Source: a virus
Lineage: Duplodnaviria; Caudoviricetes
Direction: 5' to 3' (one strand)
IMG/VR virus record: IMGVR_UViG_3300038315_000297
Location: 1 to 53,389 of that record
DNA: 53,389 nucleotides
The notes under the pieces: generated by a model
Database searches by the model: none
Told to the model about the DNA's origin: nothing
The model's input: only the letters and a program-made list of their open reading frames with translations
Program-made: the position numbers and the translations under genes
Shown: positions 22,101 through 36,809 of the stretch, one piece after another
Layout: every line of letters begins with the position of its first letter
How positions within the stretch are numbered: the first letter of the stretch is position 1

Positions 22101-22820
22101 ACAGCTATCGCAGCAATGTTAGTAGCAGATAGAATGGGTTATCTACCAAAAGGTGAAGGTAGATTCACCAGTCCAGAGGCTATTAGTATAGGTAGAAACG
22201 CAGTATATAATTTACAGTTTGGAATGAGCCCTCAGTTCCATACTACTGCATTTGGTGGGCCAATGAAAGGTGTGATGCAGTTTAAAGGATACACATATTT
22301 TCAACATCTTCACGATAAAAAAATAGTGGAGAACATGATAAACTCTACGAGAGGACAGAGTTTAGGTGATGTGGGTCAGAGGGCAGTAGATGCTGTACAA
22401 AGACTTGGGCAGAAGGGAAAAAGAAGGCATAAAGGTGATATAGAGCTTGCAAAGATGGCTAGGTTTGCTTCTACTAGGGTGATTGCATCAGGATTGGGTG
22501 TATTTGTACAGTTTTTTAAGTCACCAGCATATCAGGCCGCAAAATTTTTAAAACAAGTTAGTAATGTTGGAATGCTTACAGGAAGACCTTTAGGTACTAT
22601 GTTTAGAGGTGGGGAGTCACCTGTACTTGGACTAATCTTCAGAGCAATGTATTACTTCACACTGTTTGGTATTTATGCTGATGAAGATGATGATGATAGT
22701 TTTATGAGAGATATGAGAAGACTGTTCTTTCCACCATTTATATCATATTGGATAGAAATGTTTATCACCGCCAAAGATGAAAAACTTTGGTGGCAACAGT
22801 ATATTGATCCCCCTTATTAA
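19164..22820 (+). CDS. Large putative internal virion / ejection protein
   Basis: 1218 aa, translationally coupled (TAATG) to the RNAP gene, with hydrophobic C-terminal segments. Last gene of the late block. Confidence 0.55.
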   Translation: MSKQQDAIDCANTNFLKGVAEEDWIFYKSRIKSSLNTRKMVGEPRDSSHLFTGNKKKQEQRRYVWHKRLYDSIYSTLVELGSLDGFRSTDPIIEYLDMLGDAYQKQFNEPIVDFNSMGPSRVVSMSVWYHRTLKQGRVGITGRHHNPNAPLTAWERMLIEPSRLVLSRDKEGYVYNLVNKLKSFSDLVQGKSSSYKRKIIGIQTKLQSAVQDNFTYDQLNDYLFEGLGDHSKYIFTTDSKPIRIVGIDNESYHVRFIETDELNRVSESDVQVIPRTRVDFGEGDISEFVSQSFHKFYKGVLAGRVRYIVPKHIPSDPKEFAKFRGSPAGKFITSILEDVKKQQEINEAEDETLVHDKIHRVTDQSGDVFHYIMYKEGEGGANEKYSAYIVKVVSPDGTSTSFVKTGKVGTETAFSGEEGTRALEDIIPEGWYKAQGWDLFQRRRLLGRKKDKSPIYSDMGNYRAYHRFNERVRVPRELESHLWDAVQERRGINKDFWKESNKWIKRIRGRLEAMSRRLEKKMTNEGYTDEEIGALLDEAMSVGGYRTNVYRDPNTGVIKTTLDFIEPKASNYDPNQFYEGDYEDEAGQRLDDAKEVIGIIEEELEEDDYDSAETRDAVEADLAEWKAVEFGIERTLRRIAGAPVSSMESPEDIDIINKPVHFKHIGTMMDHTKRREDAQVDNNYFDRTITALQMNEIKVQLLQSLLYTTDNKTLSDYLIRMTKVAFGESNYKSDVIDNEGMANFLNKIIPKAIREGRLGENKDYTPDDVQFYTTFNNLIYTSKFLNWWSALQNNFQRLNVFVHFGWEISKESFKLNDPKHPQYKKFREAVEETGVLELLSAFNEMLMGMHSADPTFRDLAMVRRKEALAFLNLSRRKFIDGKGMKNIDYAIRRASGLGVGQQDLVRFKRLKGLYWDIVSPNSTMDKALVEDRLKKIMRGISKSQLRRAAFFTLKWFPPPIKAGQGYLTFSGVEENLRAETAIAAMLVADRMGYLPKGEGRFTSPEAISIGRNAVYNLQFGMSPQFHTTAFGGPMKGVMQFKGYTYFQHLHDKKIVENMINSTRGQSLGDVGQRAVDAVQRLGQKGKRRHKGDIELAKMARFASTRVIASGLGVFVQFFKSPAYQAAKFLKQVSNVGMLTGRPLGTMFRGGESPVLGLIFRAMYYFTLFGIYADEDDDDSFMRDMRRLFFPPFISYWIEMFITAKDEKLWWQQYIDPPY

Positions 22821-23023
22821 AATCCTAAAGTAATAGTGATGAACGGCCTAAATATTTTAATATTTAATGCTACTGTATGGGAAGATAGGGTAATTGATAT
22901 GCTTGCTGGCCATAGATTTATTGTTATATGATACTGTGTTCCTAGTAAGACTGATTTAGATACTCTTATCCTTGAGTATTTACTTCCAATACTAAATAGA
23001 ACTTCCATTTTTGTATTAAACAT
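22817..23023 (-). CDS. Hypothetical protein (beta-rich, C-terminal Phe)
   Basis: 68-aa ORF with an upstream SD (AAAGGAG). Last gene of the minus block; its stop codon overlaps that of the convergent gene. Confidence 0.55.
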   Translation of the reverse strand: MFNTKMEVLFSIGSKYSRIRVSKSVLLGTQYHITINLWPASISITLSSHTVALNIKIFRPFITITLGF

Positions 23024-23055
23024 AAGATTTCTCCTTTAGATTTTGCTGGCCACAC

Positions 23056-23553
23056 CTAGTCTGAAAGGAGATTCAAATAACTATACTGACATATCAGTAT
23101 AGCATCAGATGTAGCCAGCGTTACCTTTTTATTTTTAGTTTGAAATGCATCAGAGGCTAAACTTTTTAAGTATCTCTTCCTTTTTGCCTTACTTTCAAAG
23201 GCGGAAGGTGTACTTATGTATGACTTTTGCCATACTTGTGGACTTATAAAGGTCACGTCCATATTCATAGTGCCAAATATCCCGATCCACGTACCATAAT
23301 TTGTACCAAATTTAAATAGGGAACTTCTTCCATCGTGGGGCATTGCGTGGACTTGTTCAATTGTAACCAAAATTCTTCTTTTAGGGATTCCTTCAATGCT
23401 GAAATGTCGCACTATTCGTCTGACGGAATTTGCCATCTCTCTAGCACCACTTGGGGTTTTCGACCAATTCATCTCATTTCCATCATACCAGGCGATCCCA
23501 CCGCCCATACCAGGGTCTATACTGATTACTGTCTCTTTCTCTATATCGTGCAT
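23056..23553 (-). CDS. RuvC-like Holliday junction resolvase
   Basis: RNase H-fold catalytic motifs ISIDPGMGGGIA, TIEQVHAMP, FKFGTNYG, SPQVWQK and SDAILI. Confidence 0.85.
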   Translation of the reverse strand: MHDIEKETVISIDPGMGGGIAWYDGNEMNWSKTPSGAREMANSVRRIVRHFSIEGIPKRRILVTIEQVHAMPHDGRSSLFKFGTNYGTWIGIFGTMNMDVTFISPQVWQKSYISTPSAFESKAKRKRYLKSLASDAFQTKNKKVTLATSDAILICQYSYLNLLSD

Positions 23554-23747
23554 TATTTTAATCCAAATAGTGATTTAGACTCCATGTCTTTTGGATAGAG
23601 TTTACCTGTCTTACCTCTTGTTCCGTAATATTCTCTTATACAACAGGATTTACAGACAACTCCTACATATGTCTTTGTATAAGACGATGTGAAGTCATAA
23701 TGTTCAGAATATGATTGCTTACTACACATTCGGCACCTCCTTATCAT
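23553..23747 (-). CDS. Small zinc-finger protein
   Basis: CRMC...CKSC pairs. The start is uncertain (23747 or 23729; the ORF track extends to 23831). It overlaps the 3' end of dnaB. Confidence 0.5.
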   Translation of the reverse strand: MIRRCRMCSKQSYSEHYDFTSSYTKTYVGVVCKSCCIREYYGTRGKTGKLYPKDMESKSLFGLK

Positions 23748-25095
23748 TCTCCTTCTTTCCTTTAGGAATTGTATTTTGGGTCTCATCTGCGGCTTGCTCT
23801 CTCGATGAATAGAATTTACATCTATCACCATTAAAGCCAGCCTGGTATGTAGCTACCCTTCCATATCTGGCCTTTCCTACTATGATTTCTGACTCATACC
23901 TGTCAAATCTATTGCTATCATAGTTATAACCATAGAAAACGAACATAGCTGTCTCTGCTGTTTGCTCTATTGATCCTGATTCAGCATAATCACTCATCAT
24001 AGGTCTAGGCTCTATTCTCCTCTCGATTTCTCTATTTAACTGACTTACTAGTATAGCCGAACAATTCATCTTCTTACATATCCATTTATAGTCTTGTAGA
24101 ATTTGCTCTATTTCGAATCTTCTCGCTTCAGCTCCTATTACCTGTATTAACTGTATAAAGTCGTCTAATATCACGTCTGGCTTGTGTCTACGTACCTCTC
24201 TCATTGTATCCTCTAGTCTTCTTACATCATCATATAGCATGAGATTGCTATATTTCTCAGAAAACGCACCGAATATATCAGATACTTCTTCTTCATCTTC
24301 TTTAGACAGGTCTCCATGTCTGACATTTGTATAAGATAGACTATTACTTTCAAGAACAATCAACTTCTTTATCATCTCTACATTGCTCATCTCTCTATTA
24401 AATACCATAACCTTTCTGCCAGCTTCGATCAACTTCTTGATGATATTAATCATGAATGTGGTCTTGCCGTGACCTGGCCTACCACCTAATACAGTTATCT
24501 CTTTTCTCGTCATTCCACCAGCTATATGATCTAACATAGGCCAGTTAAAACTAATCATATTACCTTTGTCCTTTATACTCTTTTGAGCTTCCTTAGCTAT
24601 TGATTCTATGTTAAGACTCTTGTCTGGTTGAAAATCAATTAGCTCTTCTATAAATTTTCTGTGTTTTTCTAGTAAGAATCCAAGTCTCTGATTATCATCA
24701 AATGATTCGTCATATAGTTTCCATGAACTTTCTATGACCTGTCTCTGTACATATTTTTCCCATATTATTCGTGCATATGAATATGCATTTGATTGTATTC
24801 CCGCATCTAGTAGTCCTGTAACAAAGTATGCTAAGTCTCCGCATGTATCTCTATTCCACTTCTTTCTAGCTTCATTTATTAATGTAACTGTGTCTATCGG
24901 TGCTTTTGATCTCGATAGTCTCTTAAGTGCCTGCCAGCATGATTTTGTATCTGAATGGTAAAATGCATCATCATCTATTATCCATATAGAAGCTTTCTCA
25001 TAAGAATCCTGACCTCCTTGAATAATTGAGGAAATCAGAGCTTCTTCCGCTTCTCTACTTGCTGGACTGACTTTCATTTCTTTGACATTTTCCAT
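23722..25095 (-). CDS. dnaB: Replicative DNA helicase, DnaB family
   Basis: N-terminal PASREAEEALISSII, Walker A GGRPGHGKT, FNREMS, Walker B ILDDFIQLI, SQLNREIERR, SGSIEQTA and KARYG. Confidence 0.95.
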   Translation of the reverse strand: MENVKEMKVSPASREAEEALISSIIQGGQDSYEKASIWIIDDDAFYHSDTKSCWQALKRLSRSKAPIDTVTLINEARKKWNRDTCGDLAYFVTGLLDAGIQSNAYSYARIIWEKYVQRQVIESSWKLYDESFDDNQRLGFLLEKHRKFIEELIDFQPDKSLNIESIAKEAQKSIKDKGNMISFNWPMLDHIAGGMTRKEITVLGGRPGHGKTTFMINIIKKLIEAGRKVMVFNREMSNVEMIKKLIVLESNSLSYTNVRHGDLSKEDEEEVSDIFGAFSEKYSNLMLYDDVRRLEDTMREVRRHKPDVILDDFIQLIQVIGAEARRFEIEQILQDYKWICKKMNCSAILVSQLNREIERRIEPRPMMSDYAESGSIEQTAETAMFVFYGYNYDSNRFDRYESEIIVGKARYGRVATYQAGFNGDRCKFYSSREQAADETQNTIPKGKKENDKEVPNV

Positions 25096-25106
25096 ATTTG
25101 CTCTCC

Positions 25107-25940
25107 TTATAGATTTAGGGTTTCCTGTGTAACTGTCTCATAGTTCGTTATGAGAAGTTCCTCGAATAGTTTTTCTCTAGATTCTGTCGCTCCAGCATAC
25201 TTTGTTTTAACTACCTGTATATTATATTGCTTGTAAGATTCTTTTATCCATTCATCACTATCATAGCTAATCATGAACTTTGCTCCACTGCTATCTATAA
25301 TGTCAGCTATATCTTTTAAGTCTTCATGGTCTTTCTCTGTAAATCCGTGGTAATAATAATCACCTCTCTTAGATACCACATAGGGTGGGTCTAGATACCA
25401 GCAATCGTTTTGTCTTGGATAGTATTTTTCTGCAAGTAATCTAAAGTCCATATTTTCTATAGTAACTCCATCAAAATATGTTCTACTGTGTTTCAGCTCT
25501 TCTGTTAATTGATCTCCCCAATCCTTCTTTGGTTGCTTAGAGAAGGCACCGTGAACACTTTTATTGAAGGCAGTTCTTATTAAGTAAAAGTATCTCGCAG
25601 CCCTTCTAGGATCAGGAATATCTATTGTTTTCCCAGAATGAATCTCTTTCCTTATCTCATCGAATAAGGTACGACTTCTAGGATACCAATATATATATGA
25701 TGCTAATTCATTAAATCTTTCTACTACACAAATATATAGATTAACAACATCATTATCAAAGTCATTCACCACATTCCATTCTACCTTCTTCTTTCTGAAG
25801 AACATAGACAGTCCGCCAGCAAACATTTCTATATACCTTGTATGAGGGGGAAGCATAGGAACCAGTTTTCTACTCAGTTCAAACTTCCCCCCCAAATATG
25901 GTATAATGACAGGACATCTCTGCCATTCGGAAGTACTCAT
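25107..25940 (-). CDS. DNA adenine methyltransferase (Dam/D12 class)
   Basis: YLGGK, YIEMFAGG (motif I), VNDFD, YLDPPY (motif IV), KFMISY and ELLITNY. Confidence 0.92.
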   Translation of the reverse strand: MSTSEWQRCPVIIPYLGGKFELSRKLVPMLPPHTRYIEMFAGGLSMFFRKKKVEWNVVNDFDNDVVNLYICVVERFNELASYIYWYPRSRTLFDEIRKEIHSGKTIDIPDPRRAARYFYLIRTAFNKSVHGAFSKQPKKDWGDQLTEELKHSRTYFDGVTIENMDFRLLAEKYYPRQNDCWYLDPPYVVSKRGDYYYHGFTEKDHEDLKDIADIIDSSGAKFMISYDSDEWIKESYKQYNIQVVKTKYAGATESREKLFEELLITNYETVTQETLNL

Positions 25941-26710
25941 GCCTGGGCTATTTCTTCATTTGCCCACTTTTTGATCTTAGGATATATAGTACTCTCCAAT
26001 TTGAAGGTACTTTCCTGTGATCTGTTCATGGCATGGGTAGTTACCCAAGTACAGGCATTAAGTAAATCCCAATATGTCTTAATCTCTTTTGCAGCGAGAT
26101 AATTGACTAATTGTTCTATAACCTGTTGTGGGAACATCTCTACAACTTTAGAGATATTATTTTTGTTTTTCAGTTCAGTACTAATCAAGTATCCTAGTTC
26201 ATTTTGTATTACGTCTTTAGTAAATGATACCATATCATAGATAATCTCTGGGAGCTTATCCAGATTAGGATTGTATATGCTATGTCGATTAGAGTTGTAT
26301 CCTATTGTATTACCAATGACCATACCATTAGAACATATTTGTCTCCACAGTCCAGCAAGAAGACTTACCTGTGTTGATCCATCATAACTGTTCTTAATGA
26401 GGATTTCGGGATTGATGAAGTCTCCCTTCTTTACTTCAACACTATCTGGAAACTTCCATTTCCATACAGTTCTGGCTCCACCACCAAATGTCCTTACTTC
26501 TGACATTGTGGCTTTTGCCTCTTTCATGATATTGTAGGAAGCATCAATTACTTCTTGATTTGTTACTAATTTGTATTCCTTTGTCATGCAACTTAGTACT
26601 TGTGATGTATCGCATCTTACTATGAACTTGTAGTCCGTTGAATTAGTCAGTCCTTCTGTCTCAATTGGCACTTCTGTCACAGGGAAGTTTCCCATACTAT
26701 ACTTCATCAT
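25937..26710 (-). CDS. DUF932/DUF945-family protein
   Basis: YKLVTNQEV, IKNSYDGS, GLWRQICSNGMVIG and TYWDLLNACT. Confidence 0.8.
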   Translation of the reverse strand: MMKYSMGNFPVTEVPIETEGLTNSTDYKFIVRCDTSQVLSCMTKEYKLVTNQEVIDASYNIMKEAKATMSEVRTFGGGARTVWKWKFPDSVEVKKGDFINPEILIKNSYDGSTQVSLLAGLWRQICSNGMVIGNTIGYNSNRHSIYNPNLDKLPEIIYDMVSFTKDVIQNELGYLISTELKNKNNISKVVEMFPQQVIEQLVNYLAAKEIKTYWDLLNACTWVTTHAMNRSQESTFKLESTIYPKIKKWANEEIAQA

Positions 26711-27119
26711 CTTTCTCCTTTATTTTGGTTATCGGTGGTGGAGAGCCATATCTCAGGCGCTCATACGCTTTTAGCTTATCTCTATCGAGATTATGTCTAT
26801 CTATTATGCCAGCAAGGTAGTTATATCCCTTACCTTCATATCGAAATTCTTTTGAGAGATATAGATTTACTCCCCATGTTATCTTGTCATCTTCTACTCC
26901 ATCTATTCTTTCAAGAAACTTTAGAAAAGACATCTTATCACTATCTGATGGAATACTTCTAGATATTGCTTTGTGAAGCTTTTTTAGAAGTTTCCTAAGT
27001 CCATCATTTCTCGGGGAAAGCAGTTCTATTATTCTCTTTGAAGAGTCATATCTGCCAGTAGACCTAATATGCACTCCCTCTATCAATTCACCACATTTGG
27101 GACATTTAAATGACATCAA
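26697..27119 (-). CDS. Hypothetical protein, possible DnaD-like replication protein with a CxxC N-terminus
   Basis: N-terminal CPKC. C-terminal KGYNYLAGII resembles the YxxxI motif of DnaD-type domains. It lies upstream of dnaB. Confidence 0.4.
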   Translation of the reverse strand: MMSFKCPKCGELIEGVHIRSTGRYDSSKRIIELLSPRNDGLRKLLKKLHKAISRSIPSDSDKMSFLKFLERIDGVEDDKITWGVNLYLSKEFRYEGKGYNYLAGIIDRHNLDRDKLKAYERLRYGSPPPITKIKEKDDEV

Positions 27120-27310
27120 TCATCCCACTTATTAATAGCTTCTTCATGTGGCGGATAGATGCCCAGTTCTTCTAGATGTTCCTGAGCTGCTATTATTTCA
27201 TCGGCACACTGTTCTGCATAAGACCAGTCTAGAACATCTGTCATATATTCTACGAGCTGATCTCTAGCCCTTTTTGCCGCTAAGTATTGTATCCACGCTG
27301 AATGACCCAT
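27116..27310 (-). CDS. Hypothetical protein
   Basis: 64-aa ORF with SD GGAGG and ATGA-type coupling to the next gene. Confidence 0.6.
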   Translation of the reverse strand: MGHSAWIQYLAAKRARDQLVEYMTDVLDWSYAEQCADEIIAAQEHLEELGIYPPHEEAINKWDD

Positions 27311-27548
27311 AAGAGCCTCCTTTTTTTCTTACCTTTTTAACCATTGCGCCAGGCGCAATATTCATCTTTTTCTTATAATAGAAATTTCTTAATTCTTTAT
27401 CTGTCTCGGGGAATCCACTATCGAACTTTGGTACTTTGTACCAGTATACTTTTGCAAAGCCTACAGAGAGTGAGAGAAGAACACCTCTCATTCCTCTTAC
27501 TTCAAAGTTATCACCAACCTTTAAAGTGTGAAGCTCTATTAGCTTCAC
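27264..27548 (-). CDS. Hypothetical protein
   Basis: 94-aa ORF (GTG start) coupled within the minus-strand operon. Confidence 0.55.
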   Translation of the reverse strand: MKLIELHTLKVGDNFEVRGMRGVLLSLSVGFAKVYWYKVPKFDSGFPETDKELRNFYYKKKMNIAPGAMVKKVRKKGGSYGSFSVDTILSGKKG

Positions 27549-27763
27549 TAATCACAGTCGTAGCAGAGTGGGCCCAGTCGACCCTCAGCTCTATCTTTTA
27601 GAGCCTCACCTTTTGCTTCTTTATAGTCTTCGATAATTTGTTTAAAATCTTTTTCTAGAGAACTGACGTGTGGATCATGTGCCTTATGTTCTGAGTTATC
27701 TAGCAAATTGTGGATTATATTTAATTCCAATTCATTTAGTTTCACTACTGTTACTCCATCCAT
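27548..27763 (-). CDS. Hypothetical protein
   Basis: 71-aa ORF with SD AAGGAG. Confidence 0.6.
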   Translation of the reverse strand: MDGVTVVKLNELELNIIHNLLDNSEHKAHDPHVSSLEKDFKQIIEDYKEAKGEALKDRAEGRLGPLCYDCD

Positions 27764-27807
27764 TTTTATTGCTCCTTATATTAAGGTTACTATTAGAGAC
27801 ACCAAGA

Positions 27808-27871
27808 GGAGAGCAGCTCAGATGAGAAGAGATTGAGAAGGGTCACGATAGAGGTTAGCGAGCCGCTCTCC
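27808..27871 (-). other. Intergenic RNA stem-loop with a 40-nt pyrimidine-rich loop
   Basis: On the minus strand GGAGAGCGGCTC pairs with GAGCTGCTCTCC (12 bp including one G-U). Confidence 0.5.
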
Positions 27872-27892
27872 CCTTAACAGAATATACTTATC

Positions 27893-28150
27893 CTAATCCC
27901 AAATATCAAGCTGAGATTCGTCCACAGGGTTCCATTTGAAGTCATTGAGAGTATATTTACTCCCATCGTATTTGCTAATGAACTCTTTAGTATGCAGACT
28001 ACTTGGATCAATTAAAGTTGAGAAAGGAATCTTCATAAATTTATCATCATGTTCTATGAGCAAATCTTCTCTTTTATTTGCACATTTCTTGACAACATAG
28101 TCTCGCACAGAGACATATCCATTAAACACCTTTTTTACTTTTACTCTCAT
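27893..28150 (-). CDS. Hypothetical phage protein
   Basis: Start MRVKVKK at 28150 has an upstream GAGGAG/AAGGTG SD (the ORF track extends to 28204). Confidence 0.6.
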   Translation of the reverse strand: MRVKVKKVFNGYVSVRDYVVKKCANKREDLLIEHDDKFMKIPFSTLIDPSSLHTKEFISKYDGSKYTLNDFKWNPVDESQLDIWD

Positions 28151-28232
28151 CACCTTTCTCCTCTTTTCTACATTTAGGGCATTTTTCACCCTTGTAGTAT
28201 CCATGTCTTGAACATATTCCAGATATTTTCAT
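28122..28232 (-). CDS. 36-aa zinc-binding mini-protein (not in ORF track)
   Basis: MKISGICSRHGYYKGEKCPKCRKEEKGDESKSKKGV, with CxxH...CxxC ligands and SD AAGGAG, immediately downstream of the tRNA. Confidence 0.55.
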   Translation of the reverse strand: MKISGICSRHGYYKGEKCPKCRKEEKGDESKSKKGV

Positions 28233-28250
28233 ACTATTCTCCTTAATTTG

Positions 28251-28322
28251 CTGGGACGGTAGGACTCGAACCTACATCCTCTCGGTTAACAGCCGAGTGT
28301 CTTGCCATTAGACCACATCCCA
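28251..28322 (-). tRNA. tRNA-Asn(GTT)
   Basis: Full cloverleaf: acceptor TGGGATG/CGTCCCA, D-stem GTCT/AGAC, anticodon arm CTCGG-CTGTTAA-CCGAG, T-arm GTAGG-TTCGAGT-CCTAC and discriminator G. CCA is not encoded. Confidence 0.95.
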
Positions 28323-28336
28323 GTGGCGAGGTAGGG

Positions 28337-28972
28337 TTAGAACGGTATGTCGCCTTCGACTTCATCCGCTGATAGAGTTTGACCATCTGGCCATTTGTCT
28401 ATTCTATCAACTTTCCAAGCTGTTCTCCAGTCTTGCTCCGCTTCTGGGAGATGCTTGGTGTTTCTGGTGACGTACTTTTCAGGCGAGAGTCTGACATAGA
28501 CAGGTTTGCCTACGACATCCTCTTCATCTAGAAGTACTAACCGTTGTACCTTAACACCTTCATCCTCCTCTTCTTCTAGTTTTACATTAAGAAGATTGAG
28601 AAGGTTGAAGTATTTCCGATTCCTGCCAGAAAGAGCTGAATCAGAGAAAACAAAATATCCTTTGTCTCCGAACTCTTTTCCAACTATGTGAGTACACTCA
28701 GCAGTCTTCTGAGTGCCATCCCCATTAACTACAGGGATTTTAGCTCCAGACTTGTCTGTTTTGTACTCAAACCCATCCATTTCCCAGACGGATTGCTGTA
28801 TTTTACCAGCTTCGTCTGCTACTTTGTATGTGAGATTAAATACTGTTGCTTGTCCAACTTTAGTATTAACCTCTCTTTCTGTGATTCCCGTTATATGGGC
28901 AGGATATGTGCCAGACTCAATTGGTATAAATTGAGACTGAGCAGGATCGAATGTAGCTTTACTTGTACGCAT
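28337..28972 (-). CDS. Single-stranded DNA-binding protein (DUF669/gp2.5-like)
   Basis: PIESGTYPAHIT N-terminus and acidic C-terminal tail EVEGDIPF, next to the recombination genes. Confidence 0.75.
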   Translation of the reverse strand: MRTSKATFDPAQSQFIPIESGTYPAHITGITEREVNTKVGQATVFNLTYKVADEAGKIQQSVWEMDGFEYKTDKSGAKIPVVNGDGTQKTAECTHIVGKEFGDKGYFVFSDSALSGRNRKYFNLLNLLNVKLEEEEDEGVKVQRLVLLDEEDVVGKPVYVRLSPEKYVTRNTKHLPEAEQDWRTAWKVDRIDKWPDGQTLSADEVEGDIPF

Positions 28973-28990
28973 CTTGTATGACTCCTTTCA

Positions 28991-29293: not shown

Positions 29294-29295
29294 CG

Positions 29296-30175: not shown

Positions 30176-30968
30176 TGTCCTTTTTCTCCTTATTAGCTAG
30201 TGGTGTATCACAGATGTCTAAGAACCCACAATATCTACATTCCCAATTATAAAAGGGAACACCAATATCCTTAGTGGGAACTAGATCATCTGGACTTGTC
30301 ACGCCATCAAGTTCTTCAAGTAAATTTTTCCAGTAATCAGTTGCTTTATGAATATAATCATTACTTATTTCTACTGTCTTGATTGCAGCATTATCTTTTT
30401 TGAAATAGTCTAGATACATACGTACCAAATCTATATGTACTCCACAGGCTTCATTATCGAACCACTCCAGACCAATAGCATACGTAGCTAGTTGTAGTTC
30501 ATAATTTTCAGATGGATTAGTTTCTCTATTCTTCTTTATACCAAACATTCTCTTCCATTTGAAACTGTGAGCTGTCTTCAGATCATGTATATGAGCTGTC
30601 GTATATCCATCCTCCCGAGTGAAAAACGCAATATCGAGGTGACCTATCACTTTATACGTAGGTATCGTTATTTCGTATTCTACGAGGATTGGGAACTCAT
30701 CCTTTCTCCACTTTGATAGATGATGTTCCACTGATTTTGCTATATCATCATGAATAACTGTTCCCACTCTCATATTTCTCATAGACTGAGAGTTTGGCAT
30801 CTTTTCTTCATATCCATTTACACGATAGTACTGCTTCTTATAACAACTGCCAGCACTCGATGCACCGAACCATGTTCTATATTCATCTCTGTCTCTACGT
30901 TGTTTGTTCCTCTTTTCCTGTATGTCAGTTAGATAGTTATGATAAATGTCCTCGATATTTGTACTCAT
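30162..30968 (-). CDS. PD-(D/E)XK Cas4-like exonuclease
   Basis: ASSAGSCYKKQYY, GTVIH, GHLD, HDLKT, QLATY and C-terminal WECRYCGFLDIC. Start 30968 has an SD (the ORF track extends to 31025). Confidence 0.85.
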   Translation of the reverse strand: MSTNIEDIYHNYLTDIQEKRNKQRRDRDEYRTWFGASSAGSCYKKQYYRVNGYEEKMPNSQSMRNMRVGTVIHDDIAKSVEHHLSKWRKDEFPILVEYEITIPTYKVIGHLDIAFFTREDGYTTAHIHDLKTAHSFKWKRMFGIKKNRETNPSENYELQLATYAIGLEWFDNEACGVHIDLVRMYLDYFKKDNAAIKTVEISNDYIHKATDYWKNLLEELDGVTSPDDLVPTKDIGVPFYNWECRYCGFLDICDTPLANKEKKDNGSK

Positions 30969-31255
30969 GCTTGGTTCTCCCTTTTTGAAAATCCTTCTGG
31001 AATAGAACTTGCGAGATTTGTACACATAGGATAAGTATACTGGTGTACAGCATAAATAACATCTGCTATTCTCTGTTCTAGTCTGGTAATTTCCTTTTTA
31101 TTGAATGGTATTTCATTATCCCATTCTATAGATTCAACAACCCAATGGTTGAGACCATCGTTAGTAACTACACAATTCCAATTATATCCATTAGCTGTAC
31201 CAGAGTAGTGATGAGTAGATGCTACCAGTTCATCAACTATGATATTATCTGCCAT
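30965..31255 (-). CDS. Hypothetical protein
   Basis: Start MADNII with SD GAGGAG (the ORF track extends to 31291). Confidence 0.55.
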   Translation of the reverse strand: MADNIIVDELVASTHHYSGTANGYNWNCVVTNDGLNHWVVESIEWDNEIPFNKKEITRLEQRIADVIYAVHQYTYPMCTNLASSIPEGFSKRENQA

Positions 31256-31284
31256 TTGTGATCTCTCCTCGCTATTTAATTTAA

Positions 31285-31908
31285 TTAACATATCTCAAAT
31301 CCACCACTGTTTTCACAAAAAGTAGCGAAATTTGCGACATTTTCTACGTCAAATGCATAGTTAGCTGCCCACATTAATCTCTTTCCAACTGGGACATTTG
31401 GGTCTTTGTATTGGCTGTTACATCCATTACAATCTTTATGTCCAGCTCCTGATTCTGGTGGTGGTTTTCTATATCCCGTGCCGTCACATATATCACAGTC
31501 GACAAAGGGTAGGCTCTCTATCTCTGCGTCTCTGTTTGCTTGATAAAGATTTGCTGATTGATCGCTTAGATGTTTCTTTAATGTTTTTGCAATTTCTTCA
31601 GCCTTTGCTTTATTAATTTCATGTCCAGAGTTTTCCATACCCATTTCCATATCCTCTTCTGTTAATACATGATCGCAAGTTTCACACACAAACTCCCACA
31701 GAGGTCTCCACCACCATACATTATTTCTAAAATAGTGGCCTGGAACAGCTTCTTCATATTTGTCTGCATCTTCTATCCACTTATCTCGTTCTTTTTCTGT
31801 AAGTTTCTTTGGTTTACCACCAGATTCCATATCTATCCAGCCTGGGTACTCTGGTCTTATAAGATTATTCGGGTTGATCGGGTTTAGTCCATATACATCG
31901 AAGCCCAT
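31285..31908 (-). CDS. Phage protein with YFRNNVWWWRPLW motif and DnaJ-like Zn finger
   Basis: MGFDVYG N-terminus, YFRNNVWWWRPLW, CDICDGTG...CNGC and FCENSGGFEIC C-terminus. Confidence 0.65.
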   Translation of the reverse strand: MGFDVYGLNPINPNNLIRPEYPGWIDMESGGKPKKLTEKERDKWIEDADKYEEAVPGHYFRNNVWWWRPLWEFVCETCDHVLTEEDMEMGMENSGHEINKAKAEEIAKTLKKHLSDQSANLYQANRDAEIESLPFVDCDICDGTGYRKPPPESGAGHKDCNGCNSQYKDPNVPVGKRLMWAANYAFDVENVANFATFCENSGGFEIC

Positions 31909-32084
31909 GGCTGCTCCTCCTTCCCGAACTTGGATTTTAACTCGTCATAGTGACGTATGATTGTTATATAAACATCCTTTTCGAGACCAGTTGCTTTGCG
32001 AGCGTTTGGATCGAACATATTCCATTTGCCATATTCTCTGACTCCTTCATAGGATTCAAAGTCATTACTCGTTATCTCTATCAT
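31884..32084 (-). CDS. Small phage protein (DUF5049-like)
   Basis: YEGVREYGKWNMFD...IIRHYDELK pattern, with SD AAAGGA. Confidence 0.5.
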   Translation of the reverse strand: MIEITSNDFESYEGVREYGKWNMFDPNARKATGLEKDVYITIIRHYDELKSKFGKEEQPWASMYMD

Positions 32085-32127
32085 AGTGATGGTTCCTTTC
32101 TGTTTATCTATTTATACATAAAAATAA

Positions 32128-32202
32128 CTACCCCTACTCTCTCGTATAGAAGGAGCTAGTCTTCTGTTATAATCCGAGGTAAGGAATGAGATTTCGGGGT
32201 AG
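32128..32202 (-). other. Intergenic nested stem-loop (possible structured RNA)
   Basis: Outer stem CTACCCC/GGGGTAG encloses CTCG/CGAG and AGAAG/CTTCT inner stems. Confidence 0.4.
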
Positions 32203-32219
32203 GTATTCTTTAAAGACGA

Positions 32220-33056
32220 CTACAGCGTAATTGGCTTGCCGTCAATAGTCCAGTATCTTGCAACTATGCTAATCCTGTCGGGGTTTTGGCACTTATGATT
32301 ATAAATGCTTTCCAACATTCTTGCATACGCGAAGGTATCAGGCTGTTTCACACACTTGCTTGACAGATACTGCATCTTCTGTAACATCTTGCGATGACTA
32401 TAATCAGGATGAGTATATAGCATTATGTAGGCAACCACAAAACTTCTGTGTGTATAGAAGTTTATCCATCTAGCGAAGGAATGTACATCTTCAGCGAAGG
32501 ATTCAAGCCAATCCCACTTACGTGCGATTTTGAATGTTCCATCCTTGAAGGTTTCCACAGTTGGTTGACTTCTGTCACCATGTAATAGTATCATAGTGAC
32601 ACTGGGGCTGAATCCCCATCTGTTCATATAACCCTCAAACTGTGCATACTGGCAGAACTTGTGTTCTCCATTATTGTACCGTTTGACATATGAACGGAGA
32701 TAGTCGGTCAATAACCATCTCTTATTGAGAGCGCTGGCTTTAGGGACTTCATCCATTGTCAGTTTATCAGTAATCTGAAAATAGACAGTTCCTTTGTCCA
32801 ACTTCAGAGCCATGAATCTATTTTGACCATCCATGATTCTGAATTTCTTGTCCACAATAATTGTGAACACTTCTGTCAGGTTCCCGCGATCTTTAATTGC
32901 TTTACGCAAATTAGAGATATGTGCTGGTTTCCTGTCTCGGTTTTCATCAAAGAAAGAGAAGAGATCATAGTCCTTCGTCTTGTAAATGACTCCAGTCTTA
33001 GTGAATTTCTTCATTCTCTCCTCCTTTGACGTTTCCTTTTTTATCATGTTATCCAC
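32220..33056 (-). CDS. ParB/Srx-like N-terminal domain protein
   Basis: KTKDYDLF...ENR and IIVDKKFRIMDGQNRFMALK motifs. Confidence 0.75.
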   Translation of the reverse strand: MDNMIKKETSKEERMKKFTKTGVIYKTKDYDLFSFFDENRDRKPAHISNLRKAIKDRGNLTEVFTIIVDKKFRIMDGQNRFMALKLDKGTVYFQITDKLTMDEVPKASALNKRWLLTDYLRSYVKRYNNGEHKFCQYAQFEGYMNRWGFSPSVTMILLHGDRSQPTVETFKDGTFKIARKWDWLESFAEDVHSFARWINFYTHRSFVVAYIMLYTHPDYSHRKMLQKMQYLSSKCVKQPDTFAYARMLESIYNHKCQNPDRISIVARYWTIDGKPITL

Positions 33057-33099
33057 CTCATTGGCTAAGGGGTTTCATGAAATGCTGAGCCACCATGGC

Positions 33100-33288
33100 T
33101 TACAGCGTTAAGTTATATTTCTCAGCATACTCTTCAGACATTCTACATAAGTATGTGGGAGTAACATAATTTTTACGTATTAAAACAGCTTTTACTATAT
33201 GTTCTGCTTCTTTTAGTTGTTGTTGCAGTTTTTGTATTAAAGGTTTTTTATCATATGCATTTGCTGGCAGTGGTTTATCTTCTGTCAT
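33100..33288 (-). CDS. Hypothetical protein
   Basis: Start MTEDKP with SD AGGAG (the ORF track extends to 33372). Confidence 0.55.
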   Translation of the reverse strand: MTEDKPLPANAYDKKPLIQKLQQQLKEAEHIVKAVLIRKNYVTPTYLCRMSEEYAEKYNLTL

Positions 33289-33655
33289 TGTATATCTCCT
33301 CATATTCACACTTAGGATTCCGACACATTTCTCCCTCTTCTGATTCATCTGACTCTGTACTACCAAATTCAACAGACATTATTTCACCCTCACACAATGG
33401 ACATTTTCTATCAATTGTATGCATATTTGAAAATGAACGTGGCGTGATATATTTATCATTCATACTTATCTCCTTTTCAGCTTTAGTCTTCTTGAGATGA
33501 GGATATATCTTCTCAAGTGTTTCCTGTGATGCAGTGTCATTGAGAGTATCAGGAAGACCACATTCTTTGAGAAGTTTCTTGTGATCCATAATATCCTGCT
33601 CAGTTAACACTTTGCCATCTAATCCTCTTCTCTTGATTATTTTATTAACATTCAT
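33275..33655 (-). CDS. Hypothetical protein with C-terminal Zn ribbon
   Basis: CPLC...CRNPKC. The start at 33655 is ATGA-coupled to the upstream ORF. Confidence 0.55.
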   Translation of the reverse strand: MNVNKIIKRRGLDGKVLTEQDIMDHKKLLKECGLPDTLNDTASQETLEKIYPHLKKTKAEKEISMNDKYITPRSFSNMHTIDRKCPLCEGEIMSVEFGSTESDESEEGEMCRNPKCEYEEIYNDRR

Positions 33656-33822
33656 GACTCTAATCCAAACCATTTAAGCACTCTATACCACCAAAACCGC
33701 ATTCGATACTTTTCAAATGCTGATAATACTGCAAGTGTTCTACAGTGTCCAATCTCTTCTAGAGTTGTACTGTTCCCCCAGAAGTGATCTGCGTTTTTCC
33801 ATACGTGCCATTTAGTACTCAT
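33652..33822 (-). CDS. 56-aa Trp-rich hypothetical protein (not in ORF track)
   Basis: MSTKWHVWKNADHFWGNSTTLEEIGHCRTLAVLSAFEKYRMRFWWYRVLKWFGLES. ATGA overlaps at both ends and SD AAGGAG. Confidence 0.55.
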   Translation of the reverse strand: MSTKWHVWKNADHFWGNSTTLEEIGHCRTLAVLSAFEKYRMRFWWYRVLKWFGLES

Positions 33823-34064
33823 TCTTCACTCCTTTGTTTACAAAATTTACAGTAATACGATTGAAAAGGCTTTCCATCCAAATCTGCGTACATATTTGTA
33901 ACTATTGTGTATCTGTTACATTTACAGCAGTAGACATTTGTATCTGTGTTCCTATATCCTGTTATTCTCCAATGATTATGACCATCAAGAATAGTTGGGC
34001 CAGGAATCCACATCGGCCTCCAAATTGGGTCTCTATCGCTGTGTTTTACTTTTTTAAGATTCAT
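33819..34064 (-). CDS. Hypothetical Zn-finger protein
   Basis: CCKC...CKFC, with ATGA coupling. Confidence 0.55.
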   Translation of the reverse strand: MNLKKVKHSDRDPIWRPMWIPGPTILDGHNHWRITGYRNTDTNVYCCKCNRYTIVTNMYADLDGKPFQSYYCKFCKQRSEE

Positions 34065-34303
34065 ACTTCTCCATTCTCCTGATTGTAGGTTTCTTCTGCT
34101 AGTATGCAATATGAATCAAAATCATTTACAGACATCAATTTGTCGTGATTATAGTGTACAGTAATTAAATCTATTAGAATGTCTTCCATCGTTCTTGATA
34201 GTTTAGATGTTTCATCTGCTAGAGCTTGTTCATAGTCAGCATCTACATCATTAAATTTATCTGCACATTGACATGGGTTCTTTTGACATAGTTCACATAC
34301 CAT
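34061..34303 (-). CDS. Hypothetical protein
   Basis: 80 aa, CELC...CQC N-terminus, SD AAGGAG. Confidence 0.55.
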   Translation of the reverse strand: MVCELCQKNPCQCADKFNDVDADYEQALADETSKLSRTMEDILIDLITVHYNHDKLMSVNDFDSYCILAEETYNQENGEV

Positions 34304-34305
34304 AG

Positions 34306-34491
34306 TTATTTCTCCTTATTAGTTCTTTCCCATTCTGGTACGAAGGGTACGAATTTCACTCCCCATTCTCCTTCATGGAATGTTAGATCACAGTCTTTGT
34401 TCACACAGCATTTTACTGGTGGTGTATCTGATTTATAATCTGTTCTAAAATCGCTATTACACTTTGGACATCTCTTTTTTATATGCCTCAT
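34306..34491 (-). CDS. Small Zn-ribbon protein
   Basis: CPKC...CCVNKDC, with ATGA coupling. Confidence 0.55.
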   Translation of the reverse strand: MRHIKKRCPKCNSDFRTDYKSDTPPVKCCVNKDCDLTFHEGEWGVKFVPFVPEWERTNKEK

Positions 34492-34718
34492 CTTAAACCT
34501 CTGGGATAACCTTGTAGATTCATACGGCCACCTTGTGGCTTCTTCTTCTTATACATATCAGAAGGAGTAGACTTTGATTTAAGTCTGCCAGAGGCATTCT
34601 TGTACCACCACCATCCATTACCATTTTCTTTTGACAATTCTGCTATCTCTTTAACACTCTGGGGGTCAAATGGATAACCTTCACGAAGTTTCCAGTTCTT
34701 TATGTATGGTGCGGTCAT
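34488..34718 (-). CDS. Hypothetical protein
   Basis: 76-aa ORF with SD GAGGTG, coupled to its neighbours. Confidence 0.55.
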   Translation of the reverse strand: MTAPYIKNWKLREGYPFDPQSVKEIAELSKENGNGWWWYKNASGRLKSKSTPSDMYKKKKPQGGRMNLQGYPRGLR

Positions 34719-35158
34719 AATTGCACCTCAAATCTTTCTTTCATCGCATTGAGTGTACCATCTGGTACGTTATGCTCACTTTTACCAGCATGTCTGTTCT
34801 CAACAATGATAGAGTACACACGCCAGTTATACTTCTCGGCCAGTACATAGTATGGTTCCATTTCACGTTCTTGAGTGAAAGTATTATGTACTAATACTTC
34901 ATAACATATATTATCTTCCATCCACTCTTTAACCTGATTTATACACCTTTGGTGGTTCTCACCAAGTTTTGCTGGATCAAATTCATACACACCATCAATG
35001 TAGAAGTAGTGATCTGTTGCTATTTGTTGTGTATGTCCTGTCTCAAGATCAACAGTGCGAGTTGTATCCGTTACAAATTCTGTTTTACCCGCGCCTGGTA
35101 GTCCACGTATAAGAAATAGTGTCCCAAATGTGACTTCATTCATGATTTTATAGTCCAT
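34715..35158 (-). CDS. P-loop kinase (AAA_33 / polynucleotide-kinase-like)
   Basis: LIRGLPGAGKT, ATDHYF, VHNTF and HNVP. Confidence 0.85.
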   Translation of the reverse strand: MDYKIMNEVTFGTLFLIRGLPGAGKTEFVTDTTRTVDLETGHTQQIATDHYFYIDGVYEFDPAKLGENHQRCINQVKEWMEDNICYEVLVHNTFTQEREMEPYYVLAEKYNWRVYSIIVENRHAGKSEHNVPDGTLNAMKERFEVQL

Positions 35159-35279
35159 GTTCTATTCTCCTTCTTTTTAGTTTACGTTTGATTTGTGATG
35201 GCGTTCTGCCATGTCTACTCAAGTATTCATTCTTCTCACGTCTGGTCTGCTTTCTATTCTTTGCTTTTCTGTTAGGCAT
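35148..35279 (-). CDS. 43-aa highly basic protein (not in ORF track)
   Basis: MPNRKAKNRKQTRREKNEYLSRHGRTPSQIKRKLKRRRIEHGL, with SD GGAGG; it fills the gap between its neighbours. Confidence 0.6.
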   Translation of the reverse strand: MPNRKAKNRKQTRREKNEYLSRHGRTPSQIKRKLKRRRIEHGL

Positions 35280-35281
35280 GG

Positions 35282-35542
35282 TTATCTGTCCTCCCTTGCT
35301 AGTCTGTACCATATTGCATAGAGTTGTTTCTTACTCATCTTCAATGCTTTGCGTTCAGAACCACCAAATCTGAATAAATACCACTCAACCAATTCATATT
35401 TCCATTTATATGGACATGATATTAAACCTGCTTTGTATAAGTCCCGCCTGTCGTAATAGTCTTCCATTACATTGAGATAACGATCAAATAACTTACCCTT
35501 CTCTTCGGATGTGAGTGGCTTTGGTGCTTTATATGCTCTCAT
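35282..35542 (-). CDS. Hypothetical protein
   Basis: 86-aa ORF with ATGA coupling. Confidence 0.6.
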   Translation of the reverse strand: MRAYKAPKPLTSEEKGKLFDRYLNVMEDYYDRRDLYKAGLISCPYKWKYELVEWYLFRFGGSERKALKMSKKQLYAIWYRLAREDR

Positions 35543-35952
35543 TTGTCAAAATACCCCCATTTACCTATTAGTGTTGCGTAACCATACATCTCAAGTATCT
35601 CTTCTGGATACTTCTTCAAATATCTTCCTGTCTCTACTGGCCTTGTATTCTTATCAGTATAAAGAGTCATATGAAGTGGTACATCAGAATCTTTTTGATG
35701 TCTTAGATATTTATGACTGACGGAGTCATCTACTTTAAAAGGCCCATCTTCATCAACATCTACATCAAAGAACCATTTATATCCAACTCTGCATTGTGCA
35801 ACACCAAACTCTTTTTTAAGTACAATTCCAATGATGTCTACTGTTACTTCATCACCTTCATTTACTTCTGTTGGTAAGTATGGATGAGGAGGGTCAAAGT
35901 GATATGTTATGTGTAACCCGTTGTCAAAGAATATGCCTGAGTATAATCTCAT
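35539..35952 (-). CDS. Hypothetical protein, possible 2H-phosphoesterase fold
   Basis: Two HxT motifs (LHITY near the N-terminus, LHMTL near the C-terminus) followed by RPVETG. Confidence 0.5.
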   Translation of the reverse strand: MRLYSGIFFDNGLHITYHFDPPHPYLPTEVNEGDEVTVDIIGIVLKKEFGVAQCRVGYKWFFDVDVDEDGPFKVDDSVSHKYLRHQKDSDVPLHMTLYTDKNTRPVETGRYLKKYPEEILEMYGYATLIGKWGYFDK

Positions 35953-36239
35953 AGTGCCTCCTGTGCGTCATGGATATAATCTCTTACTGTCGTGTATCTA
36001 CCTTTACCAGATATACCTGTATCTATTGCGTCTTGGACTGCTCTGTGAAGTGTCTTGTTTAAATCTTTTATTTCTTTACCAAGTCTTTGCTCCATTCCAG
36101 TAATTGTATCGCAAAGAAAGTTTATAATTTCATCTGTTTCGTAGTCTTCAAATGTATCTGCGAACATACAATACTTATGATTGGCGTACTTATTTACTAA
36201 CGATACTACGTTCTTAGTTAACTTTTTATATAGTTTCAT
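35949..36239 (-). CDS. Hypothetical protein
   Basis: Start MKLYKK with SD AGGAG (the ORF track extends to 36293). Confidence 0.55.
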   Translation of the reverse strand: MKLYKKLTKNVVSLVNKYANHKYCMFADTFEDYETDEIINFLCDTITGMEQRLGKEIKDLNKTLHRAVQDAIDTGISGKGRYTTVRDYIHDAQEAL

Positions 36240-36423
36240 AGTGTCTCCTATGTTTATACCCAAGTGAATGGGATTTGTGTATGTATTAGTCAAACTTTGC
36301 CCGTATTGGGGTTTAACTCAAACCGAGTAACGAAGTTACGGGACTGACTCCGATTATAGTGATTCAGTTACGTTTTTATACGAACTTGCTGGGGTTAGAA
36401 GTCCCCCATCAATCCCACATCAA

Positions 36424-36669
36424 TCAGACTTTGACGTATGTGGTTGCGTTGCCATCAGAGGTCTTGACATCATCGAATCCCTTGCACTTATCGTATGCGT
36501 CCTGCAATTGGTCACACCGAAATGCAATCTTGGTAGTACCGTTGGATGCCATTGTTAGGCGAATGAACTTGCGTCCACCCCATTCATATTCCTCACCTTT
36601 GTCGAAGAATACCACGGGTTCTGCCCAACCTCTAACTAACAACAAGATAGTATCCATTAATCCTGCCAT
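36424..36669 (-). CDS. Hypothetical protein, first gene of the early block
   Basis: Start MAGLMDT with SD AAGGAG (the ORF track extends to 36789). Confidence 0.55.
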   Translation of the reverse strand: MAGLMDTILLLVRGWAEPVVFFDKGEEYEWGGRKFIRLTMASNGTTKIAFRCDQLQDAYDKCKGFDDVKTSDGNATTYVKV

Positions 36670-36780
36670 CTGAATCTCCTTTTGGTTAATTAACCTTTTA
36701 ACGAAAAGTGGGATTTCCATTTCCCACCAATTTTGTTTCCATGAGTGTATATGGCCATATATCATTGGTGTATATTTTTC

Positions 36781-36809
36781 TTGATACACTTGGGTTTTCT
36801 GGGTATATT
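36781..36809 (+). promoter_or_regulatory. Sigma70-like promoter of the late operon
   Basis: TTGATA-N17-TATATT, followed by SD AAGGAG and ATG 36834. Confidence 0.6.

Follow-up and report, generated by a model that had tools for sequence, protein, structure and literature searches.

A compact marine phage lineage distinct from Crassvirales, with a predicted injected-type two-barrel RNA polymerase and no recognised DNA polymerase or primase

We analysed a 53,389-nucleotide stretch of viral DNA (Duplodnaviria; Caudoviricetes), here called the window, which is the whole of the IMG/VR virus record IMGVR_UViG_3300038315_000297. Taken as a whole, the data are probably best explained if the window is the near-complete genome of an uncultured marine podovirus-like phage, one of a lineage with genomes of about 53-58 kb that is separate from Crassvirales. 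In its tail-side gene block, a giant protein carries a C-terminal domain predicted to be a single-chain RNA polymerase with two double-psi beta-barrels (DPBB), and the oppositely oriented block encodes replication and recombination proteins among which no DNA polymerase or primase was recognised. The case is best filed as an injected-type two-barrel polymerase in a new, abundant and compact marine lineage that probably relies on its host for DNA synthesis.

The open reading frame (ORF) map and the GC skew divide the window into three gene blocks (Table 1), and the sign of the skew switches exactly at the block borders. Relatives were located through the terminase large subunit (TerL), a relative of which is encoded by 598 of the 599 IMG/VR candidate stretches, the best 80 at 71-99% identity. 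Those used below are G001 (57.7 kb, rated 100% complete, ending inside the giant gene), G002, and G003, a 111-kb record holding about two genome lengths, in which two related but distinct phages (G003a and G003b) are joined head to tail; these make up four related genomes. A further record, G004, is an 82% fragment lacking the replication block.

The giant protein and its predicted RNA polymerase domain

The fold of the last 1,079 residues of the giant protein was that of a two-barrel RNA polymerase. An AlphaFold2 model of residues 2150-3228, made with a 30-sequence alignment, had a pLDDT of 83.1 and a pTM of 0.82, and its best Foldseek match was gp66 of the crAss-like phage phi14:2 (PDB 6VR4, chain 6vr4_A; E 4.8e-10, TM 0.44 on the query), followed by QDE-1 (2e-8), RDR2 (5e-6) and then beta-prime-type subunits of multisubunit enzymes. 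In VIA comparisons, the model matched RDR2 (Z 14.7), QDE-1 (13.5), P74 gp62 (12.9) and gp66 (12.8, over 671 residues), with 576-671 residues aligned; the top matches are all two-barrel RNA polymerases and are effectively tied, lying within about 2 Z units. Model residues 412-571 were also aligned by VIA with the beta-prime-like chains of AR9, PhiKZ and bacterial RNA polymerases. At the level of the fold, these results support the DPBB RNA polymerase of the original prediction, which had also placed the enzyme in the virion, a location suggested by gene position and analogy as discussed below.

The predicted catalytic motif of the domain, DFDGD, contains three aspartates (D2685, D2687 and D2689) that are invariant in all five sequences from the window and its relatives; in the 30-sequence alignment, with model numbering, D538 is invariant and D536 and D540 are conserved in at least 90%. 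Using hhalign, the RxP...DFDGD stretch was placed on the gp66 stretch that contains DFDID, at an E value of 0.073. The fourth motif residue varies within the lineage, being glycine in the window and G001 (DFDGD) and in G003a (DWDGD), alanine in G002 (DYDAD) and isoleucine in G003b (DFDID). By comparison, isoleucine or valine occupies this position in all crAss-like enzymes, according to the available portion of the study of gp66 (10.1101/2020.03.07.982082), whereas the glycine of the window is the residue found in cellular polymerases and QDE-1.

Sequence conservation of the domain is low. Its homologs in the four related genomes share 17-29% identity in the alignment, and two of the four were undetected by BLAST. 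A search of 1.84 billion representatives gave 121 clusters, most matches being C-terminal in proteins about 1,400-3,650 amino acids long. We found no match to the domain by tblastn among 50,697 phage records, two polymerase profiles (A1 and A2) retrieved chance rows only from the PDB, and phmmer searches of the PDB with the giant protein and the 1,218-amino acid protein encoded downstream of it retrieved nothing.

Comparison with solved enzymes brings out both likenesses and differences. Like the window enzyme, gp66 carries its two DPBB barrels and a DxDxD metal site in one polypeptide, and it is part of a very large protein ending the tail-side block, with a zincin-type element adjoining. In phi14:2 the zincin domain is in the neighbouring protein gp65, as the accessible text of the same study states (10.1101/2020.03.07.982082), whereas in the window the polymerase and an HExxH motif lie in one 3,228-residue chain, and the two polymerases have no significant sequence similarity. 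QDE-1 and RDR2 share with the window domain the single-chain two-barrel architecture and the glycine in the catalytic motif, and their VIA scores are at least as high as that of gp66. However, they are RNA-silencing enzymes of eukaryotic cells, about 10-12% identical to the window domain where the sequences align, while that domain forms the last part of a multi-domain phage protein.

Replication and recombination genes and the absence of DNA polymerase and primase

The 31 ORFs of the minus-strand block were scanned against PHROGs, Pfam and NCBIfam, and the 61 ORFs of the window were covered by the PHROG and Pfam scans. As had been claimed from the sequence beforehand, the block encodes DnaB, an exonuclease and RuvC, each with a direct family match (Table 1), that of the RuvC-like resolvase being to PHROGs only, with no Pfam match. 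The phage DnaB has the N- and C-terminal DnaB domains only and carries no primase domain. A Dam-family methyltransferase and a DUF932 protein are encoded beside it.

Two further identifications, SSB and Sak, fared differently. The first can be read as a single-stranded DNA-binding (SSB)-like protein: its G003 ortholog matches the SSB family phrog_378 over its full length (8e-8), and the C terminus of each of the five orthologs is an acidic residue plus [ILV]-P-F. Bacterial SSBs bind replisome and repair proteins through a tip of this kind. The second does not stand as a Pfam Sak protein. Its product is likely to be a single-strand annealing protein of Rad52 type, either highly diverged or of another kind, that was exchanged in situ. 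This reading follows from G001, where a true SSAP_Sak (6.6e-44) occupies the corresponding place, flanked by a small conserved gene and the exonuclease gene, and from the Atlas, in which one of the clusters neighbouring the window protein has Rad52_Rad22 on 11% of its members (score 0.95). The apparent swap sets the G001 SSAP_Sak (L087:18536-19120) against a 204-240-amino acid protein in the window, G002 and G003, and no similarity was detectable between the two. Profiles of the SSB-like and annealing proteins gave chance rows only in the PDB.

No DNA polymerase, primase, ligase or integrase was matched by any of the 61 window ORFs, and six-frame searches of five records (the window, G001, G002, G003 and G004) with PF00476, PF00136, PF08275, PF09250, PF13155, PF00589 and PF01068, models that cover PolA, PolB, the DnaG core, Toprim_2, Prim-Pol, tyrosine integrase and ATP-dependent ligase, were negative for each model in all five. 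The positive control, DnaB_C, was found in four of the five, the fifth being the uninformative fragment G004. For G001, G002 and the two G003 genomes, the scan of the replication blocks covered 71 of 73 ORFs of at least 90 amino acids, two ORFs crossing the locus borders having been left out; it recovered the same replication core in all four and found no polymerase or primase, and the longest ORF in these blocks was DnaB, of about 450 amino acids. The absence of these genes noted in the original prediction is thus borne out in the window and in four related genomes. From it we infer the use of host polymerase and primase.

It is unlikely, in our judgement, that the phage has a DNA polymerase or primase of its own in a form not recognised by these models, hidden among the conserved proteins without a function or in the large unassigned proteins. 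There is room for such an enzyme, as no function is assigned to about 4,300 residues (the first 2,149 amino acids of the giant protein together with the 914- and 1,218-amino acid proteins) or to several conserved proteins of the replication block. In addition, the calcineurin-like metallophosphatase has a weak match to the PolD small subunit model NF003118 (E 0.0015), and the PolD catalytic subunit is itself a two-barrel enzyme. However, the function-less proteins of the replication block are all of 287 amino acids or less, and the PolD-like score (17.6 bits) is far under the cut-off of 445 and reflects the generic calcineurin-like fold, phosphatases of this kind being present in phi14:2 too. 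The two-barrel domain, moreover, matches RNA polymerases, with no PolD chain among the top 50 of either the Foldseek or the VIA list. DUF932 was tried as a hidden primase or loader and rejected: its AlphaFold2 model was good (pLDDT 90.6), yet neither Foldseek (best E 4.8e-3) nor VIA (best Z 7.8) gave a match to a polymerase or primase fold that rose above noise. Titles and abstracts of the literature naming DUF932 offer no function for it; its homologs in this lineage occur on contigs of up to 57,680 bp.

Proposed location of the polymerase in the virion

The polymerase would be packaged in the particle and transcribe early genes, by analogy with injected phage polymerases. In the sequence record of phi14:2, gp65-gp67 are annotated as virion proteins on the basis of proteomics. 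N4-like phages (Schitoviridae) resemble the window phage in being podovirus-type and in having a giant polymerase, and their TerL proteins, at 23-25% identity, are among the best cultured matches to that of the window. The N4 virion enzyme is T7-like and not two-barrel, and N4-like phages have DNA polymerase, primase and helicase genes of their own. In the window, by contrast, no T7-type RNA polymerase was matched by Pfam or PHROGs in the 61 ORFs, the two-barrel domain being the only polymerase domain recognised. The injected polymerase of N4-like phages is given as about 3,200-3,500 amino acids in the available part of one report (PMC13434306), a size comparable to the 3,228 residues found here.

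The remainder of the giant protein has features of polyvalent proteins. These are described in the accessible text of Iyer et al. (2017) as large, injected and multi-domain, with enzymatic modules joined to a zincin-like peptidase; the N4 virion RNA polymerase is among the examples, and that text mentions no two-barrel polymerase module (PMC5512222). Hydrophobic stretches are seen in the translation near residues 150-190, and the HEYFH sequence at residue 1755 has the zincin-like HExxH form, with a similar motif, HEYAH, in G003a. The region around HEYFH had no Pfam match, including to the Pfam polyvalent-protein families. In the middle of the protein, residues 1112-1278 (12811-13311) match phrog_768, annotated as a DprA-like recombination mediator (4.4e-36), and residues 940-1018 (12295-12531) match phrog_20898 (3.4e-18), both segments having no Pfam match; this part may be an additional injected nucleotide- or DNA-binding module. 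The 1,218-amino acid protein, which matched no family and no PDB entry, is, from its position, a probable further internal or ejected virion protein.

The two-barrel enzyme might instead be an intracellular, non-virion phage RNA polymerase, or serve some other role, as packaging is deduced from gene position and as the model is also matched by non-virion two-barrel phage polymerases, namely P74 gp62 (Z 12.9) and pieces of the AR9 and PhiKZ non-virion enzymes. We consider this improbable. About 2,100 residues, with hydrophobic segments and the HExxH motif, precede the domain in the same chain, and its gene lies on the late strand between fibre genes and another very large protein, which is the arrangement of known injected polymerases, those of N4 and phi14:2 among them. 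Moreover, the scans of the window ORFs found no other RNA polymerase and no sigma factor that could start early transcription.

Separation from Crassvirales

The virion genes of the window belong to families other than those of crAss-like phages. The major capsid protein (MCP) has no match to the Crass_capsid family PF23898 at E<=0.01, whereas the MCP of crAss001 matches this family (6.2e-228) and phrog_11589; TerL and portal of crAss001 fall in phrog_6681 and phrog_6547. In pairwise BLASTP comparisons with crAss001, the MCP (E 2.0), TerL (3.9) and portal (0.30) were non-significant, and tblastn at E<=0.01 found no match for any of the 61 window proteins in crAss001 (1-50 kb) or phi14:2 (50-100 kb). 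TerL matches 252 cultured-phage records, all at less than 27% identity, with ICP2-like vibriophages and roseophages joining the N4-like phages among the best, and of 50,697 phage records the MCP matches one and the portal three. A nucleotide search with the early block found no match. These family assignments and the lack of pairwise similarity support a lineage outside Crassvirales, as judged from sequence comparison, and MCP and TerL did not fall within that order; the different, smaller phage group that had been proposed is in keeping with this, the genome being about half the size of the crAss-like references (102,679 and 100,418 bp).

The overall plan is nevertheless reminiscent of Crassvirales, and a very divergent, reduced member of that order, comparable to its polymerase-less epsilon group, has to be weighed. 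Shared are two opposed blocks, a giant two-barrel polymerase of injected type ending the tail-side block, a zincin-type motif and a P22-type portal, and the portal of crAss001 itself weakly matches phrog_156 (6e-9). A metallophosphatase, DnaB and a PD-(D/E)XK nuclease are also listed for crAss-like phages in the available text of one survey (PMC7886860), and epsilon crAss-like phages have no DNA polymerase, according to the accessible parts of two sources (PMC7886860, PMC11054128). However, the second of these gives the epsilon group a primase (PMC11054128), which the window does not have, and the first counts a DnaG-type primase among four replication genes that are highly conserved in most crAss-like phages (PMC7886860). 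DnaG-family models (PF08275, PF13155) matched none of the five records, and the ORF scans of the window and its relatives found none. Together with the differing capsid, portal and terminase families, the roughly twofold difference in genome size, the glycine in place of isoleucine or valine in the catalytic motif and a use of Shine-Dalgarno (SD) sites unlike that of two crAss-like controls (see below), this makes membership in Crassvirales very unlikely. Marine Crassvirales have been defined by crAss marker hidden Markov models in an Antarctic virome, as described in the part of that report available (PMC11502894).

Ends of the genome

The first and last ORFs are open at the window ends, and both ends lie in tail-fibre-like genes. 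A metagenome contig, L109, shares the last 343 bases of the window (98%) and extends about 0.8 kb further in a related strain, in which the last ORF of the window stops 52 codons past the window end and is followed by another small ORF; ahead of the shared bases, L109 has a different, repeat-rich N-terminal part of the fibre. Logan contigs of four marine runs stop 89-194 bases beyond the window end. In the same four runs, positions 50100-53389 are represented by variant contigs with depths from 6 to 455 and many loose ends, and Logan contigs include a variant that skips 311 bases at 52390-52702. Because the fibre region splits into many variant contigs in all four runs, the end of the record appears to be an assembly break in hypervariable receptor-binding genes.

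That polymerase or primase genes sit in the segment missing between the window ends, as a linear record estimated to be 96% complete with open ORFs at both ends would allow, is extremely unlikely, since both ends lie among tail-fibre genes, L109 shows the last ORF closing shortly beyond the end, the end region has the variant contigs that mark a hypervariable fibre region, and the complete or near-complete relatives G001 and G003 have neither family.

Shine-Dalgarno use and the host

The original prediction that most genes have AGGAG(G) SD sites holds as an enrichment but not for the large genes of the first block. The window contains 151 AGGAG sites on both strands, 39 of which sit 3-11 bases ahead of a start codon opening at least 40 codons, compared with 8-18 for permuted 5-mers that do not overlap the SD core. 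A 5-mer SD precedes 16 of the 31 minus-block genes with unrefined longest-ORF starts; after eight starts were shifted to SD-preceded ATGs the count was 25 of 31, which is circular for those eight. In relatives, 22/36, 14/22 and 34/63 genes are preceded by an SD, and the controls gave 2/48 annotated phi14:2 genes, 7/46 crAss001 genes and 16/421 internal in-frame ATGs. For the large genes of the first block the count was 0/7, and most of these abut or overlap the preceding gene.

DnaB, the Dam methylase, the bacterial-type SSB tip and the SD sites point to a bacterial host with SD-led initiation. Bacteroidota largely do without SD sequences, and the two Bacteroidota-phage controls agree with low SD use. 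The strong AGGAG sites suggest a phage tuned to an SD-using host, which is therefore probably not a member of Bacteroidota. Relatives identified by TerL also occur in three metagenome-assembled genomes labelled Methanosarcinales, Dehalococcoidia and Poseidoniales (L105, L106 and L107; one contig of 47 kb). These labels were rejected as evidence of the host because they are mutually discordant and read as binning noise; the lineage contigs in the three genomes probably represent bin contamination in public genome sets.

Near-identical DNA turned up in 10 studies (15 runs). The label is marine metagenome in 14 runs and a coded organism label in the other, and eight of the 15 may be source samples. 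In five metatranscriptome runs, one labelled hydrothermal vent, the early block (23000-32999) shares 0.07-0.10 of the sampled words.

Proposed infection strategy

The late tail-side block ends in a giant protein whose C-terminal third is predicted to be a two-barrel polymerase of the crAss gp66/QDE-1 class. By analogy with phi14:2 gp66 and the N4 virion polymerase, this protein would be packed in the particle and injected with the DNA, and its polymerase domain would transcribe the first genes of the oppositely oriented early block. That block would supply an accessory set made up of DnaB, SSB, an annealing protein with its exonuclease, a resolvase and the Dam methylase, and the phage helicase and SSB would draw in host Pol III and DnaG for DNA synthesis and priming. 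Later in infection, replication may become recombination-driven in the manner of SPP1 and P22, which replicate in this way with the host polymerase. The replication modules of these two phages combine a helicase of the DnaB family with an SSB and an annealing protein-exonuclease pair and lack a polymerase and primase (G40P/G36P/G35P/G34.1P in SPP1; gp12 in P22), a set to which the DnaB, the SSB-like protein, the probable annealing protein and the exonuclease of the window would correspond; both use the host polymerase and primase. They differ in being temperate or siphovirus-type and in having no injected RNA polymerase. Sigma-70-like sites were not enriched in the window (44 versus 53.4 expected).

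Several results weigh against this interpretation. The likeness to gp66 is structural, with no significant sequence similarity in either the PDB profile searches or the hhalign comparison, and both packaging and RNA synthesis are deduced from fold, motif and gene position. The intergenic regions contain no repeated or shared motif that could serve as an early promoter. Within the accessory set, the SSB-like protein of the window has no family match of its own in PHROGs, Pfam or NCBIfam, the annealing-protein candidate has none in Pfam, PHROGs or PDB profiles, and neither a helicase loader nor an origin-binding protein was identified in the window, while the DUF932, 140-amino acid zinc-ribbon and 207-amino acid zinc-finger proteins are conserved in the replication block with no assigned role. 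The function-less residues of the large proteins could hide a novel polymerase or primase. Finally, no contig among L109 and the Logan contigs of the four runs links both ends of the window, and the discordant labels of the bins that hold relatives give no link to a host.

A bolder scheme in two linked parts seems to us unlikely when both are taken together. In the first part, the two-barrel enzyme would be the only polymerase of the lineage, transcribing the early genes and also laying RNA primers for host Pol III; such a dual role would explain the loss of both primase and DNA polymerase. The N4 virion polymerase, which is required for N4 DNA replication, is a precedent. In the second, the lineage would stand nearer than the crAss-like phages to the proposed phage source of QDE-1/RDR, because of its canonical glycine motif and its probably non-Bacteroidota host.

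Other features of the genome

The coordinates of the features are collected in Table 1. The conserved 140-amino acid zinc-ribbon protein matched no family in PHROGs, Pfam or NCBIfam, and the Atlas neighbours of the 207-amino acid zinc-finger protein are unnamed viral clusters only. The upper limit of the minus block is set by ORFs reaching 36669 or 36789. Its promoter-proximal part is variable: almost none of the small ORFs of 33100-36669, and neither the ParB-like nor the AAA_33 kinase-like protein, has a counterpart in the four related genomes, and together they make up a fast-turnover group of early genes, probably for host takeover. The gene of the metallophosphatase lies between the small and large terminase genes in the window, G001 and G002, but both G003 genomes carry it within the replication block. 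A symmetric element, G8-ATTATA-G8, with GA repeats on both sides (context 36999-37035), occupies positions 37006-37027 in the intergenic region from which the early and terminase blocks diverge; it is absent in G001, G002 and G003, and may represent an assembly oddity or else a site of regulation, replication origin or packaging. As for the composite record G003, which IMG/VR rates as 100% complete, its first 85 bases are repeated at 57,715-57,799, and its last 728 bases match its own positions 54,387-55,107 at 89%.

Table 1. Features of the window, in order of position
Feature	Position	Strand	Basis or remarks
Whole virus record (window)	53,389 bp		linear; CheckV completeness 96%
First gene block	1-22820	+	fibre-like genes and very large proteins (902, 914, 3,228 and 1,218 aa)
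Giant 3,228-aa multi-domain (polyvalent-type) protein	9478..19164	+	ORF; tail-side block
HEYFH motif (HExxH, zincin-like), aa 1755	14740..14754	+	sequence motif only
Predicted single-chain two-barrel (DPBB) RNA polymerase domain, aa 2150-3228	15925..19161	+	AlphaFold2, Foldseek, VIA
Putative catalytic DFDGD motif, aa 2685-2689	17530..17544	+	Asp conservation; hhalign onto gp66 DFDID
1,218-aa protein downstream of giant gene	19164..22820	+	position; weak homologs in G001 and G003a
Early/replication-recombination block	22817..36789	-	31 ORFs and one tRNA; ORF map, GC-skew flip, family scans
RuvC-like Holliday-junction resolvase	23056..23553	-	phrog_1770 4e-20; orthologs in 4/4 related genomes
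DnaB-family replicative helicase	23722..25095	-	PF03796 1.9e-48; PF00772 5.8e-13; TIGR00665 1.7e-66
Dam-family (D12) N6-adenine DNA methyltransferase	25107..25940	-	PF02086 1.4e-29; TIGR00571 1.6e-28
DUF932 protein, conserved beside DnaB	25937..26710	-	PF06067 4.6e-17
Conserved 140-aa protein, N-terminal CxxC zinc ribbon	26697..27119	-	orthologs at 29-33% identity in 4/4 related genomes
tRNA-Asn (GTT), only tRNA of the window	28250..28322	-	ARAGORN; inside minus block
SSB-like protein, acidic ...DIPF C-terminal tip	28337..28972	-	indirect: ortholog match and conserved tip
Probable Rad52-type single-strand annealing protein	29525..30175	-	slot shared with G001 SSAP_Sak; Atlas neighbour
PD-(D/E)XK / Cas4-like exonuclease	30162..31025	-	PF12705 1.4e-6 (28.9 bits, cut-off 22); phrog_1706 1.4e-18
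Conserved 207-aa protein, CxxCxGxG-type zinc finger	31285..31908	-	orthologs in 3/4 related genomes
ParB-like protein	32220-33014/33056	-	family match
AAA_33 kinase-like protein	34715-35158	-	family match
Third gene block	37061-end	+	small and large terminase, endolysin, portal, scaffold-like protein, capsid protein, tail genes
Zinc-ribbon and calcineurin-like metallophosphatase	38023..38889	+	phrog_7339 6.4e-23; orthologs in G001, G002 and both G003 genomes
Terminase large subunit	39233..40786	+	phrog_38 5.2e-72; 598 relatives in IMG/VR
P22-type portal protein	41755..44034	+	PF16510 1.8e-50; phrog_156 1e-56
Major capsid protein, SU10 type	44997..46580	+	PF17236 5.3e-25 (89 bits, cut-off 24.1); phrog_1328

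Significance

In the literature searched, injected two-barrel RNA polymerases were reported only for crAss-like phages of Bacteroidota and for a Thermus phage that carries the enzyme in fusion with a tape-measure protein; no podovirus-type lineage outside the crAss-like phages was described there with such a polymerase, the search having covered sources other than subscription journals and supplements. The window would place the same enzyme class in an unrelated, smaller and widespread marine lineage that has no replicative polymerase or primase, suggesting that this type of polymerase moves between phage orders or predates them. The eukaryotic RNA-silencing polymerases have been proposed to derive from a phage of a proteobacterial endosymbiont, according to the available portion of the study of gp66 (10.1101/2020.03.07.982082), and the canonical glycine motif of the window domain, together with a VIA closeness to QDE-1/RDR2 that equals that to gp66, bears on this phage origin. 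The lineage may also offer a compact natural system for learning what an injected polymerase does when the phage otherwise leans on its host.

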